A stretch of DNA of 24,000 nt from Carnobacterium sp. Lineage in GTDB: Bacteria > Bacillota > Bacilli > Lactobacillales > Carnobacteriaceae. The notes under the pieces were generated by a model. It was not told the origin of the DNA. It saw only the letters and a program-made list of their open reading frames with translations, and searched no databases. A program made the position numbers and the translations under genes. This document shows, piece after piece, positions 1 through 11,518 of this stretch. Position 1 is the first letter of the stretch. Every line of letters begins with the position of its first letter. The DNA is taken from NCBI GenBank assembly GCA_020431645.1, contig JAGQHW010000003.1:1-24000 (forward strand), read 5' to 3'.

Positions 1-1247
1 AGTTCATAGGCATCTTTTTCTAAAATATAAACAGAATTATCTGGTTGTAAAATCAGTCTTGGCTCTAAATAATTAGAAATTTCATTTAACTCTTCACGAT
101 GTTTAGCTAAATTAATCAAGCCATCTTGAATAATAGGGGTTAAATCATCCATCACAATTAAGACCTCATTGTGATTATCCATACTATTTAGAAAACCTTT
201 AGCACAAGCTAATTGAACATTCGATTTTAATTGACCAACGTTTCCGTAAGTCACACTACCTAATAAAGCTTTTACAACACTCTCATCTACTACAATACGC
301 TTATTGATTCTTTTAGCTTCAATAGATAAAAGTAATTTTACTAATTGGACACGTTCTTTGGCTGGACGATCATTAAATGAAGGAAGTTGAATAGTTATTG
401 GTATGCGGCGGACAAAGGTTTTTAATAACGCAGAGTCAGGGTCTTCTGTCGTGGCACAAATAATACGAACATTGGCTGTTAAACGCTCTTCGGTATCCCC
501 CATTCGTTGGAAGGTTCCGTTGTCCATAAAATAAAAGAGCATTTCTTGACCTTCTGGTGGTAAACGATGAATTTCATCTAAAAACAACATGTTTTTATCT
601 GCTTTAACAAGTAAACCATCTTTATCTTCGGTTGCTCCTGTATATGATCCTTTAGCATGCCCGAATAAATGCGACATCAATAATTGTGGGTTCTGAGAAT
701 AATCAGCACAGTTAAAAATAATCATAGATTTTGTTTGATCAATCACGTCTTTTGATTGAGAATATTCGTACATCGCATTTGCGAAAAAGGTTTTCCCAGA
801 ACCAGTAGGTCCTATTATCAAGCTATTTAGCCCCTTAGGTGGGTAAAATATTGCTGCTTTTGCTTGTTCCATCTGGTTTTTTAAACTACCATTTGACCCA
901 ATCATATAATCAAATAAGTTTTTATCTGAAATAGTGTTTCCTGTTTTTATCGGTTTATCTTTTTCTTCATTAACTAGCGTATGTTCTTTATAAGATTTTA
1001 CTTTTGTAGTTAATGGTTTCCAGACTAAACAAGACTTATCTACATATCTAACAGGTCGACCACTAATTTTTATTATTTTTTCTTCACGAACGAGTTCATT
1101 TAATTCCTTACTAACATTGTTCCGAATAATATCTAACTCTTTTGCAATATCAATAGTTGTTAGGCCATTGCCAAATTCGATTTCTTCTTTAGTTAATTGT
1201 TCTGTATTTTTTTTGACATAGTGATAAATCAAATCTTTGCGCTTCAT
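1..1247 (-). CDS. Sigma-54-dependent transcriptional activator, LevR/ManR type (partial; C-terminus lies beyond the left window edge)
   Basis: Manual minus-strand translation from ATG at 1245-1247, with AGGCGGTGA RBS-like upstream: MKRKDLIYHYVKKN... It has an N-terminal HTH-like region, Walker A GPTGSGKT (789-812), a sigma-54 contact loop variant GSYTGA (633-650) and Walker B LFLDEIHRLP. The frame is open to position 1. It is missing from the ORF track because no stop codon lies in the window. Confidence 0.8.
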   Translation of the reverse strand, partial: MKRKDLIYHYVKKNTEQLTKEEIEFGNGLTTIDIAKELDIIRNNVSKELNELVREEKIIKISGRPVRYVDKSCLVWKPLTTKVKSYKEHTLVNEEKDKPIKTGNTISDKNLFDYMIGSNGSLKNQMEQAKAAIFYPPKGLNSLIIGPTGSGKTFFANAMYEYSQSKDVIDQTKSMIIFNCADYSQNPQLLMSHLFGHAKGSYTGATEDKDGLLVKADKNMLFLDEIHRLPPEGQEMLFYFMDNGTFQRMGDTEERLTANVRIICATTEDPDSALLKTFVRRIPITIQLPSFNDRPAKERVQLVKLLLSIEAKRINKRIVVDESVVKALLGSVTYGNVGQLKSNVQLACAKGFLNSMDNHNEVLIVMDDLTPIIQDGLINLAKHREELNEISNYLEPRLILQPDNSVYILEKDAYE

Positions 1248-1295
1248 CTATTCACCGCCTTTTTCTATTATCCATACGAGTATACCACATTATAA

Positions 1296-1325
1296 ATTCA
1301 TACACTATTTTAATAGTGTATGAAT
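1296..1325. repeat. Perfect 30-bp palindrome (14-bp arms, 2-nt centre): attcatacactatt-tt-aatagtgtatgaat. Possible operator or hairpin upstream of the LevR-like gene.
   Basis: Verified base by base: all 14 arm positions pair. It lies between the left terminator copy and a TATAAT on the minus strand (+ strand attata, 1288-1293). Its function was not established. Confidence 0.6.
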
Positions 1326-1372
1326 AAAAAAACCTTCGTTGTTCGGAATGAGTCCGCCAATAAAGATTTTTT
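1323..1372 (-). terminator. Degenerate copy of the eno terminator element; probable terminator of the two-gene cassette
   Basis: About 47 nt nearly identical to 2846-2894. In minus-strand RNA the stem UCUUUAUUG/CAACGAAGG still pairs (2 G-U wobbles, 1 mismatch) and a U-run follows. It starts 10 nt downstream of the stop at 1383. Confidence 0.45.
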
Positions 1373-1382
1373 AAGTGCGTTC

Positions 1383-2243
1383 TTATCGCTTACTAAACTT
1401 TACTCTTTTATTTAATAATTTAGCTTGTAGTTTAGTAGCATTTACAAAATTACTCAATGCTTTTCTTTGAATCTCATCTAGTAAGTCATAATCAATGGTT
1501 ATGATTTTCCTTGATAAAAAAGCATACTGTTCATTAATATCAGAACTTGCTTCACTAAGTTCATCTCTGAACAGTATTATTTCCGGAGTTACTCGTTTTA
1601 GATTCTTAATTTCTTTAAGTATGTTATCTATCTTTTTTTTTATTTCTATGGTCATTTTTTCATTCTTTTTTTTAGTACCTTTTCCAATCATATACGCCCC
1701 AGCCCCGCCGACAGCCCAACCTATTGGTCCTGTTAGCCCAACAACTAAAGAACCCAATCCTATTCCACCACCGCCAGCTACTAATGCTCCGCCACCTAGC
1801 CAAGCTAAAGCTGCGTTAGTTGCTGCTGCTCCAGATAACGCACTGATAGCTGTTCCTGTAGAAGCAACACCAAAAGTAGTGGCTGAAGCCATTAAAATAT
1901 TGGCTCCTAATACTCCAACAACTGCTCCCGTGCCCGTAACTGCAGCTGCAGATTTGATTGCCTTTTCATCTATTTTCTTTATCTCTTTTTCTAACGTTTG
2001 TAGTTCAAATGTAAAATCTTTTAAACTTGACTCTGTAGATTCAATAGTGATACTAATTTCATCAGGAGTGTTTCTAAATAAATTATAATAGTTAACACAC
2101 CTTAAAATAGTCTGATACAATTTTTGTTTATTCTCATAAATTTCTTGAGCGATTAAATTAACCTCTTCTACTACTATTTCATACTGTTCAACAGTTTTAT
2201 AATGTAATTTCTCATAAATCACTCGCTCTTCTTTTCCTAACAT
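1383..2243 (-). CDS. Hypothetical membrane protein: N-terminal coiled-coil-like region, ~90-aa Gly/Ala-rich glycine-zipper core, C-terminal Lys/Glu-rich coiled-coil-like region
   Basis: 286-aa ORF with ATG at 2243 and a strong RBS (GGGAGGGG about 9 nt upstream). The core AAAVTGTGAVVGVLGANILMASATTFGVASTGTAISALSGAAATNAALAWLGGGALVAGGGGIGLGSLVVGLTGPIGWAVGGAGAYMIGKG (nt 1680-1955) carries repeated small-xxx-small motifs. I recognised no family. Confidence 0.85.
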   Translation of the reverse strand: MLGKEERVIYEKLHYKTVEQYEIVVEEVNLIAQEIYENKQKLYQTILRCVNYYNLFRNTPDEISITIESTESSLKDFTFELQTLEKEIKKIDEKAIKSAAAVTGTGAVVGVLGANILMASATTFGVASTGTAISALSGAAATNAALAWLGGGALVAGGGGIGLGSLVVGLTGPIGWAVGGAGAYMIGKGTKKKNEKMTIEIKKKIDNILKEIKNLKRVTPEIILFRDELSEASSDINEQYAFLSRKIITIDYDLLDEIQRKALSNFVNATKLQAKLLNKRVKFSKR

Positions 2244-2269
2244 GATTAAAAGCCCCTCCCTTTAGTCTA

Positions 2270-2794
2270 TTATGTTCTAAAAAATGAATCACATTCTGCT
2301 ATATCAGTATAATTAAATTCACAATTCTCGATTGAAACAGCTTTTAGTTTAAGGTAATCCGTTAGTCCATCTTCTTTAATATAAGGAGCTTGTATTTTGA
2401 TACCAGTCTTTTGATCATACCACCACTTTGTAAATTCAAAAAAATCAGATAATGTATCTTCTAATTCTAACTTAGTAATCATGTGGTCTTCATGTTTAGC
2501 TTTGTTCCCTTTTCTTCTTAAACGATGCATCGTATCTACGATTGACGAATCTAGCTCCATTCTCTTAGGAATTTCATTGATAGCGCAATACAGTTTATTG
2601 TAATTTTCCTTTTCGAATGCTTCTATCTTAAAAATAAATTGCTTAAGCATTTTTTCTAATAGGCTTATTGCCTCTCTTGTTTGTAAGGAATAGTTATTTG
2701 GGTGTATCTCCATTTCTCTGATACTTTTAAATAAGTCAGGAAATGCCTCTTTTAAAAAGATATAATTTGAATCCACGTTCTCACTACCTTTCAA
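2270..2794 (-). CDS. Standalone DUF4145-like protein (resembles the N-terminal domain of type I restriction HsdR subunits)
   Basis: The track ORF 2270-2827 begins at a TTG placed directly after an in-frame TGA and has no RBS. An internal TTG at 2794 has AGGAG (2800-2804) 5 nt upstream and is the more likely start. Motifs NYIFLKEAFPDL, QTREAISLLEKMLKQFI, MHRLRRKGNKAKHED and LSDFFEFTKWWY follow the pattern NFxFL..WPEL / RRALE..VKW / IR..GN.AVH / LF.F..WL that I recall for DUF4145 and HsdR-N. It sits 26 nt upstream of the next ORF, which is operon-like. Confidence 0.75.
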   Translation of the reverse strand: MKGSENVDSNYIFLKEAFPDLFKSIREMEIHPNNYSLQTREAISLLEKMLKQFIFKIEAFEKENYNKLYCAINEIPKRMELDSSIVDTMHRLRRKGNKAKHEDHMITKLELEDTLSDFFEFTKWWYDQKTGIKIQAPYIKEDGLTDYLKLKAVSIENCEFNYTDIAECDSFFRT

Positions 2795-2845
2795 ATTTAC
2801 TCCTAATAAAGTTAGTATATCATACAATCAGTGGGCTAAATACAT

Positions 2846-2900
2846 AATAAAAAACCTTCGTTGTTCGGAATGGGTCCGACCAACGAAGGTTTTATTTTTT
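2846..2900 (-). terminator. Rho-independent terminator of eno (bidirectional architecture)
   Basis: Stem ccttcgttg(t)tcgga-atggg-tccga(c)caacgaagg at 2855-2889, flanked by an A-run (2849-2854) and a T-run (2890-2900). It lies about 55 nt downstream of the eno stop on the minus strand. Confidence 0.8.
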
Positions 2901-2956
2901 TCTTTTCAGTTTTTAAATAGGAGTTAAATGGGTTAACTTCTATTTACTTGAATCGC

Positions 2957-4252
<1,296 letters not shown>

Positions 4253-10589: not shown

Positions 10590-11375
10590 TTAACCGGGCT
10601 GCATAACTCCTGCAAACGCTAACCATGCCAAGGCAGACTTAGCAACTAAACTTAAGATAATATAGGCACGTTCCCCATAAAGATAGTTTTTCCAAGGTCC
10701 AACTTTTTTATACTGTAAAATCATATTTATTGGAAATAGATTAAAGAAAACAAAATAAGTTCCTGCCAAGGCATATACGAACCATGGAACTTCTGAAGGA
10801 TCAGCATTTCCAAATGCATATAACAAGATAACTATCCATGGAACGAATCCAGCGATTGTCCCAAAAATAAATGACTTCCAATCGGTTTTTTTTCTGTAGT
10901 AAGTCATTTCTTCCATAACTAAACCGAATAAATTCATTGTGGCATTAAGAACAAACATTAAGATAAGTGATCCGATGTCGTAAACACCAAACAACATAGC
11001 AATTAGAATAATCATCAACGATGAACTAATCGCGTATTCGTACCATCTAAAGCGGTTCATGTTTCTTTCCAAATCTTTGTTATATATTTTGTTCCCCCAA
11101 GGCGTCACAATAATGAAGTGTGCTAAGGCAGAAATAAATAAGAATAATGAAACCATTATTCCAAATGGCGCACTAAACAGCTCTTTTTCTTCCGTTAATA
11201 ATCTCATTTGAGTTGTATCGAATGTCAGGAAATAAGACCTGATAGGAATTTTGAAATTGGCAATCTTATCAATAAAAATAGCAAAACCGAGCATGAGGCT
11301 TCCTTGAACTAAGTGCAATAAGCCCATAATAATATTAAATCTTTTTAACGATTTGAAGTCTATTGCTTTGGCCAT
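10590..11375 (-). CDS. Heliorhodopsin-like 7-TM retinal-binding protein
   Basis: 261 aa with 7 hydrophobic segments. The blocks FRWYEYAISSSLMIILIA and GERAYIILSLVAKSALAW match, from memory, the hallmark TM3 and TM7 blocks of heliorhodopsin 48C12 (FRWVEYSLSSS..., GERAYIVLSLVAKSALAW). The putative Schiff-base Lys codon is AAG at 10638-10640. I moved the start to ATG 11375 (AAGGAG 8 nt upstream) because the track's ATG at 11414 has no RBS. Confidence 0.85.
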   Translation of the reverse strand: MAKAIDFKSLKRFNIIMGLLHLVQGSLMLGFAIFIDKIANFKIPIRSYFLTFDTTQMRLLTEEKELFSAPFGIMVSLFLFISALAHFIIVTPWGNKIYNKDLERNMNRFRWYEYAISSSLMIILIAMLFGVYDIGSLILMFVLNATMNLFGLVMEEMTYYRKKTDWKSFIFGTIAGFVPWIVILLYAFGNADPSEVPWFVYALAGTYFVFFNLFPINMILQYKKVGPWKNYLYGERAYIILSLVAKSALAWLAFAGVMQPG

Positions 11376-11518
11376 TAAAATCACTCCTTTTTTTAGTTGA
11401 ACTAGAACTTGCATTTTATTGCTCTAGTTCACTTTATTTATACTTTTTATTGCCTTAATTGTACACTTTTTTCTTACATATAACTATTTATATGTTTCGC
11501 TAGTTAAAATTCTACTAT

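Follow-up and report, generated by a model that had tools for sequence, protein, structure and literature searches.

What is a pair of genes doing between the terminator of the enolase gene (eno) and the next gene, in a region which otherwise contains housekeeping genes in their usual order? The question is raised by Carnobacterium sp., a low-GC Firmicute (assembly GCA_020431645.1), in a stretch of 24,000 nucleotides (nt) which we will call the window (positions 1 to 24,000 of contig JAGQHW010000003.1). A preliminary description, made from the sequence alone, had noticed there two linked genes on the minus strand, separated by 26 nt, the second one with a strong ribosome-binding site (RBS). 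The open reading frames (ORFs) and the RBS GGGAGGGG bear out this layout. Gene 1 codes for a standalone DUF4145/HEPN-type protein of 174 amino acids (aa) and gene 2 for a membrane protein of 286 aa. We will use the letter A both for the product of gene 2 and for its family, PDC-M09A. The two genes form a cassette of 1.5 kb. Our conclusion is that it is a real, accessory and selectively maintained two-gene module from the phage-conflict repertoire, not a categorically new one; the function and the mechanism which we infer for it are discussed below.

The cassette is an accessory insertion, which comes and goes between Carnobacterium strains. A look-up of the exact enolase protein gave four related contigs. 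Three of the four have the cassette, the other one (L088, GCA_049673005.1) is empty: there eno is followed by one terminator hairpin and then directly by levR. This empty site agrees with the earlier proposal of an accessory insertion at the eno terminator, for which a comparison of the junction in related strains had been recommended. The occupied allele of one contig (L085) has 1490 bases more than L088. Before the junction the two contigs are 99.2% identical, over a length of 4.2 kb; after it the identity is 94.6%, a drop which suggests a recombination breakpoint at the junction of the cassette. The positions to be compared are 4232–4236 in L088 and 7403–8894 in L085: the identity falls exactly there.

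The upstream boundary of the insertion is the intrinsic terminator of eno, found as an inverted repeat with an RNA folding energy of −26.7 kcal/mol (z = −5.9). The downstream boundary is a second copy of this terminator, which the preliminary description considered near-identical. This is the case for one half of it: positions 1327–1356 and 2849–2878 form a direct repeat with 97% identity over 30 nt. The other arm has decayed and the hairpin is weaker (−16.7 kcal/mol, z = −3.9). A terminator scanner called no terminator in positions 1200–3000, yet the hairpins are plain from folding and from the search for inverted repeats. The scar of the insertion differs between strains, because L085 keeps just about 15 nt of the second copy, which in the window is a full but degenerate hairpin.

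Both genes show the mark of purifying selection. Between Carnobacterium strains the ratio of nonsynonymous to synonymous polymorphism (pN/pS) is 0.11–0.12 for gene 1 and 0.09 for gene 2, with pS 0.08–0.16; therefore both are maintained as proteins. Two metagenomic contigs of an organism far richer in AT carry the same pair at 49–53% identity, with its order and spacing kept, in a different gene context. Its recurrence in an unrelated context indicates that the two genes move as a unit. Mobility genes, such as an integrase or a transposase, were not found near the cassette, and base composition does not flag it as foreign: its GC content is 0.30–0.34 against 0.37–0.39, and the GC content of third codon positions (GC3) is similar. 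A megablast search of the cassette against plasmids had no match, and neither did tblastn searches with both proteins against plasmids and phages. The only relative on plasmids is a distant member of the A family (P0089), present in Lactococcus.

Gene 2 can be placed in a family. According to the preliminary description no named system matched the cassette. This is still true of the pair, which has no name and lacks PDC-M09B, but not of its downstream gene: the protein matches the PADLOC model PDLC04407 (PDC-M09A) with E = 2.2e-68, covering positions 12–282 of 282, and also PDLC04406 with E = 5.8e-58. By these profiles A is a full-length member of the PADLOC candidate family PDC-M09A. It is 99% identical to a hypothetical protein of Carnobacterium sp. 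TMP28. Scans of A against Pfam and NCBIfam gave no family, only sub-threshold coiled-coil noise. Clustered at 90% identity, the A family comprises over 7000 clusters from many phyla.

The AlphaFold2 (AF2) model of A has confident helices at residues 4–53, 61–98, 191–246 and 257–277, while the central region 87–188 is unconfident. Residues 100–187, where the predicted local distance difference test (pLDDT) score is below 50, are 88 uncharged residues, 26% Gly and 22% Ala, with Lys-rich stretches on both sides. Here the glycine-zipper core between coiled-coil-like arms of the preliminary description can be recognized. The prediction for this segment is a membrane hairpin, or two, which would leave both arms on the cytoplasmic side. 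Within the family no part is better conserved (63% identity, 27% in the arms): in an alignment of 20 diverse sequences 34 columns of it are invariant. A contains four GxxxG and seven small-xxx-small-xxx-small motifs. However, the Pfam glycine-zipper families have no match to it at E values up to 1: the motifs are present, membership of the family is not.

Outside its own family, the only significant similarity of A is with positions 356–579 of LeoBC (middle domain, paddle and GTPase effector domain, GED), with E = 6e-7; for a relative the value is 3e-9. No GTPase domain was found in A by the Pfam scan. In structural comparisons with Foldseek, A matches the ClyA pore 6mrt_A with probability 0.98, E = 0.028 and a template-modelling (TM) score of 0.36, the core being modelled at pLDDT below 50. 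Another structure, 2wcd_A, has E = 0.13. The matches with highest probability include ClyA pore protomers (0.98 and 0.92) and AhlB/C. The ClyA matches may reflect composition. The Pfam family Bacillus_HBL gives E = 0.028, below its cut-off. Weak matches of residues 85–270 to tape-measure families are also found in PHROG (phrog_167 with E = 5e-5, phrog_339, phrog_28 and phrog_10613): they may be compositional or a real resemblance to membrane-inserting segments.

The usual partners of A are different from gene 1. We called ORFs in 80 species-level loci of other genomes and clustered the adjacent neighbours of A on the same strand. In 51 loci a protein of about 480–535 aa, similar to PDC-M09B/M40B, lies immediately downstream of A: some are PDC-M09B, with E values as low as 1e-203, the others a variant whose N-terminus is similar to PDC-M40B/HEC-05 and whose C-terminus is that of PDC-M09B. 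A BnzB-like neighbour (E = 6e-106) is found in 16 of the 80, mostly upstream of a longer form of A with about 366 aa. Three loci have a partner with an ATPase-like C-terminus, with a preceding WYL protein. In this minor architecture (L005, L034 and L064) the A homologue is followed by the ATPase-like protein of 303–364 aa; the WYL protein precedes in L012 and L034. The N-termini of the partners have an enzymatic look: one class has a HEC-05/GmrSD-like stretch there. In the alignment of PDC-M09B (e.g. L014:8808–10250) the N-terminal domain has invariant H66, E71, D103, Q112 and K114, which resemble the pattern of PD-(D/E)xK nucleases; no Pfam or PDB sequence match confirms this likeness.

The large partners have in common a C-terminal stretch of about 45 aa which ends in [ILV]-D-x-[FY]-[FM]-x-x (e.g. 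L014:8808–10250, L047:6532–7968 and L018:8835–10436) and which is not represented in Pfam. Of the 66 large partners 53 have the terminal motif [ILVMAC]-D-x-[FYW]-[FML], against 4 of 740 genes in the background. The strongest matches of the C-terminal profile among these 740 genes appear to be additional copies of partners. This module may be an adaptor which couples the partners to the membrane protein.

The surroundings of the family are also informative: A-family loci are often near defence genes, such as those of restriction-modification (RM), BREX, DISARM, dynamin and DUF262. One A homologue sits between genes for MutH, HNH and RE_NgoFVII and a SLFN-type helicase. Neighbours of A homologues sampled at random (138) match the models of PDC-S01, mad3/8, DpdF, DrmD, BrxH, LeoA/BC, Cas11e and DRT. 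In the mobilizable plasmid pSD96_06 of Lactococcus lactis (L093, NZ_CP043518.1 13856–24713) a member of the A family and its 498-aa partner are placed between two dynamin genes, and the pair also adjoins a DUF262 gene. With A in a family of defence candidates and its relatives in such company, the phage-conflict link of the preliminary description is upheld.

The identification of gene 1 as a DUF4145-like protein is also sustained. The Pfam model PF13643 gives 22.3 bits, with a cut-off of 23.1, and there are two other profile matches, to the N-termini bearing DUF4145 of HsdR (PRK11448, 1e-6) and of PDC-M16A (3e-8). A 95%-identical protein carries the NCBI name DUF4145, and an HMMER search with the gene 1 product recovers distant DUF4145-like proteins. 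In its AF2 model (pLDDT 79.7) the top Foldseek matches in the PDB are nearly all HEPN proteins: AF_0298, HepT toxins, AbiV, HepS and the HEPN domain of sacsin. DUF4145 is a divergent family of HEPN ribonucleases, RNases (PMC3710099). RAZR/PD-T7-4, which cleaves RNA, needs residues R146 and H154 of this domain for defence (PMC13017515). When the gene 1 product is aligned with distant DUF4145 proteins, N97 and H101 never vary and H90 and R93 hardly do; the spacing from R93 to H101 is the same as that of R146 and H154 in RAZR. From these comparisons it would be a small cytoplasmic HEPN (DUF4145) protein, a putative RNase with R-x3-N-x3-H intact. The preliminary description had given it the role of sensor or regulator. 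We depart from this assignment: it looks like an effector, because it has a putative HEPN RNase domain with R...N...H kept.

The HEPN core is followed by an extension of about 45 aa. Its end is predicted to be disordered (pLDDT below 50) and terminates in CDSFFRT. This tail is kept in 49%-identical homologues, while the preceding 30 residues diverge, and it falls in register with the final [ILV]-D-x-[FY]-[FM]-x-x of PDC-M09B and of the BnzB-like partners. It could be asked if the DUF4145 protein has in full the 47-aa C-terminal domain found in the large partners. This is ruled out by an E value of about 3 for the profile, therefore the likeness of the tails is that of a five-residue motif. Its chance expectation is about 1e-3, as we estimate from residue frequencies. 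The lineage of gene 1 is very rare: 1.84 billion representatives, scanned in full with HMMER, gave only 2 clusters below 1e-10, and there was no match in plasmid or phage collections. Searches of PDB sequences with profiles of A, the DUF4145 protein and PDC-M09B gave nothing significant.

We tentatively interpret the cassette as a strain-variable conflict or defence pair, a minimal variant of the systems based on PDC-M09A, in which a HEPN effector is gated by A. It is more likely that the HEPN protein is the effector and the membrane protein its sensor or anchor: a constant membrane protein, combined with variable enzyme-like partners which have a common tail, favours this role for A. That membrane-linked DUF4145 HEPN proteins have been noted previously also counts for the interpretation as a whole. 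We infer a contact of A with its partner, an RNase activity, the roles of sensor and killer and an anti-phage phenotype, in the following way. A would be a cytoplasmic helical bundle whose tip, the Gly/Ala-rich segment, is buried in the membrane, and it would hold or gate the partner there through the C-terminal tail of the latter. A membrane disturbance linked to infection would alter A; genome injection and late lysis functions are candidates. The HEPN RNase would then be released or activated, cut RNA and stop the growth of the infected cell (abortive infection).

A more general proposal can be made, as a long shot. A might be the common membrane sensor of a large modular class, so far unrecognized, formed by PDC-M09, PDC-M40B-like, BnzB-type and HEPN variants, in which nuclease-type effectors dock through the C-terminal ...[IL]-D-x-[FY]-[FM]-x-x. 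The Gly/Ala hairpin, with its weak likeness to the membrane-inserting segments of phage tape-measure proteins, might detect the injection channel of the phage or assemble together with it; genome entry would then be coupled to the cleavage of RNA or DNA.

Several observations speak against a defence pair with a HEPN effector. In the window the cassette lies outside any defence island and has no mobility gene. The Pfam score for DUF4145 is slightly below the curated cut-off, and the Foldseek E values for the HEPN matches are 0.1 or higher. By sequence the likeness of the tail is one of five residues, where the 47-aa partner profile fails. The defence role of PDC-M09 is guilt by association, since its members are known as candidates only, and one screen saw no protection from a lactococcal plasmid system with a Bunzi annotation, which may or may not be related to this family (PMC11381338). 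Finally, the extreme conservation of the Gly/Ala core of A would also fit a killing device.

This last point leads to the alternative closest to the preliminary description, in which the membrane protein was a membrane-disrupting effector. A would be the effector, it would oligomerize into a membrane lesion and depolarize the cell, with the DUF4145 protein as a sensor or regulator which triggers or restrains it. We consider it the main rival of our interpretation but less likely, although invariant columns kept across phyla are what is expected of an assembly interface, the uncharged segment has GxxxG motifs, ClyA protomers, AhlB/C and, weakly, Bacillus_HBL appear among the matches, and membrane effectors are common in abortive infection. 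The Foldseek and Pfam matches are not significant (E at least 0.026, TM score at most 0.37); the significant one is with the stalk and paddle of a dynamin-like protein and not with a toxin. Where one component is constant and its enzyme-like partners vary, a sensor or scaffold with exchangeable effectors is the more typical case, and the catalytic-type residues kept in the DUF4145 protein would be needless in a pure sensor. A has no Pfam glycine-zipper match either, and a pore-forming toxin is not supported.

A selfish toxin-antitoxin or addiction pair, with no role against phages, is quite improbable. A HEPN toxin would be neutralized by the membrane protein or by the context of the transcript, and the cassette would thereby be stabilized in the chromosome. 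HEPN toxins with protein antitoxins are well known, HepT/MNT toxins are top structural matches of gene 1, and the compact operon varies in presence between strains. However, no MNT-type or other known antitoxin domain is found, the context of the A family is that of defence islands, and A pairs mostly with non-HEPN partners of about 480 aa, so that it is not a dedicated HEPN antitoxin. Least probable of all is a membrane-maintenance or stress pair, with A as a dynamin-like stalk and paddle devoid of its GTPase, binding or remodelling membrane, and the small protein as an accessory: the LeoBC match over middle domain, paddle and GED and the dynamin genes near some homologues would suit it, but genomes which are 99% identical differ in having the cassette, the partner of A is extremely rare, the catalytic-type HEPN motif is retained, and bacterial dynamin pairs (Eleos) are themselves listed as defence systems (LeoA/LeoBC models of PADLOC).

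If it proves active, the cassette would represent the most compact form known so far of a widespread family of candidate membrane-linked defence modules. With one recognizable enzyme (HEPN) and one membrane protein it could show what the conserved membrane module does. The C-terminal motif common to unrelated partners suggests a simple rule for the attachment of effectors, and the cassette suggests how membrane-linked defence modules swap their partner proteins. The near-isogenic Carnobacterium strains with and without the cassette are natural controls.

The features of the cassette are collected in Table 1. On the minus strand the genes follow the order cggR-gap-pgk-tpi-pgm-eno, then gene 1, gene 2, the second terminator copy and levR, which codes for a sigma-54-dependent LevR-like activator. 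The rest of the window had been described as conserved housekeeping, which is correct: genes for ClpP, RpoN, WhiA, YvcK/RapZ-like, Pgm and TrxB-like proteins are also found, in the usual order of Firmicutes. There is besides a heliorhodopsin gene (10590–11414, minus strand; Pfam PF18761, E = 1.8e-101), directly upstream of cggR amid the housekeeping genes.

Table 1. Position of the cassette features in the window.
Feature	Position	Strand	Evidence or remarks
Gene 1, 174-aa standalone DUF4145/HEPN-type protein	2270–2794	−	TTG start; AGGAG precedes at 2800–2804
Putative HEPN/DUF4145 catalytic-type motif, H90...R93-x3-N97-x3-H101	2492–2527	−	Alignment with distant DUF4145 proteins
C-terminal tail CDSFFRT, candidate docking motif	2273–2293	−	Conservation; register with partner ends
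Gene 2, 286-aa membrane protein of the PDC-M09A family	1383–2243	−	ATG start
RBS of gene 2, GGGAGGGG	2253–2260	−	9 nt before ATG; read from sequence
Uncharged Gly/Ala-rich segment, residues 100–187 of A	1683–1946	−	Hydropathy and composition
Candidate extended −10 element of the cassette, TGATATACT	2814–2822	−	Read directly from sequence; no good −35
eno intrinsic-terminator hairpin, upstream insertion boundary	2846–2898	−	24-nt arms, 5-nt loop; A- and T-runs flank both sides
Second, degenerate copy of eno terminator, downstream insertion boundary	1323–1372	−	Direct repeat and fold

The longest ORF of gene 1 covers 2270–2827, 185 aa counted from the first TTG. We dropped 2827 as a start, since no RBS goes with it and it falls on the promoter-like element. 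The TTG at 2794 is probably the start, giving 174 aa; in other assemblies and related contigs the product is called as 174 or 168 aa. A consensus promoter scan did not call the candidate TGATATACT element. Transcription of the cassette by read-through from eno is an alternative to a promoter of its own.

Two other features are found in this region. Between the second terminator copy and the start of levR there is a perfect palindrome of 14+14 nt (ATTCATACACTATT..AATAGTGTATGAAT, 1296–1325), which overlaps the −35 of the sole promoter-like match on the minus strand. In L088 its outer arms are changed with their complementarity kept. It is probably an operator or a hairpin which controls the LevR-like gene. 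The other one is a Pro/Ala-rich ORF of 197 aa on the plus strand (1495–2088), antisense to gene 2: it reflects, from the opposite strand, the codons for Gly and Ala in the hydrophobic core, and almost certainly no gene is involved.

We will end with the known systems to which the cassette can be compared. PDC-M09 is a candidate of PADLOC-DB v2, with the cassette FAM_02775>>FAM_02807 in 380 instances (Payne et al. 2024, bioRxiv 10.1101/2024.01.29.577857). No literature was found under the name PDC-M09; the supplementary tables of the preprint give family numbers alone. Like it, our cassette is a tight two-gene operon and A is a full-length PDC-M09A. However, the order of the genes is reversed, with the partner upstream, and the partner is a 174-aa DUF4145/HEPN protein, similar to PDC-M09B in the five-residue terminal motif only. 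The PDC-M09B model does not match this protein, the sole adjacent gene, at E below 1, while a genuine PDC-M09B gives 1e-203. Since it has no PDC-M09B, the cassette is not a PDC-M09 system.

Bunzi (BnzA/BnzB) has a membrane protein with two transmembrane segments and a soluble or partly membrane-bound partner, and surveillance of the membrane has been proposed for it (Millman et al. 2022, bioRxiv 10.1101/2022.05.11.491447). It resembles the cassette as a two-gene system of membrane protein and partner, and after the PDC-M09B/M40B-like proteins it is the BnzB-like ones which most often accompany the A family, found only beside other members of it. However, BnzA has a TerB domain and A has no TerB match; the Bnz models and TerB have no match in either protein of the cassette. 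With neither a TerB-bearing BnzA nor a BnzB, the cassette is not Bunzi.

RAZR/PD-T7-4 has a DUF4145-type HEPN domain with R and H equally spaced, and acts by abortive infection through RNA cleavage (PMC13017515). RAZR consists of one polypeptide, which has a zinc finger at its N-terminus and becomes active when it assembles around phage ring proteins (PMC13017515), whereas the DUF4145 protein of the cassette is paired with a membrane protein; the cassette is not RAZR because it has no zinc finger. The DUF4145 HEPN proteins of Anantharaman et al. 2013 (PMC3710099) also couple a HEPN RNase to a membrane element, for a stimulus-dependent degradation of RNA. They are single polypeptides whose transmembrane domain is one helix with a WP signature, while in the cassette the membrane element is a separate, unrelated protein. 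LeoB/LeoBC (Eleos; domain layout in PMC4159319) has helical arms with a hydrophobic membrane tip, and A aligns to its middle domain, membrane-binding domain and GED. However, A has no GTPase domain and is about half its size. The pairing of a DUF4145 protein with PDC-M09A is very rare and undescribed, and the cassette shares one component or principle with each of PDC-M09, Bunzi, RAZR and the DUF4145 proteins fused to a transmembrane domain.

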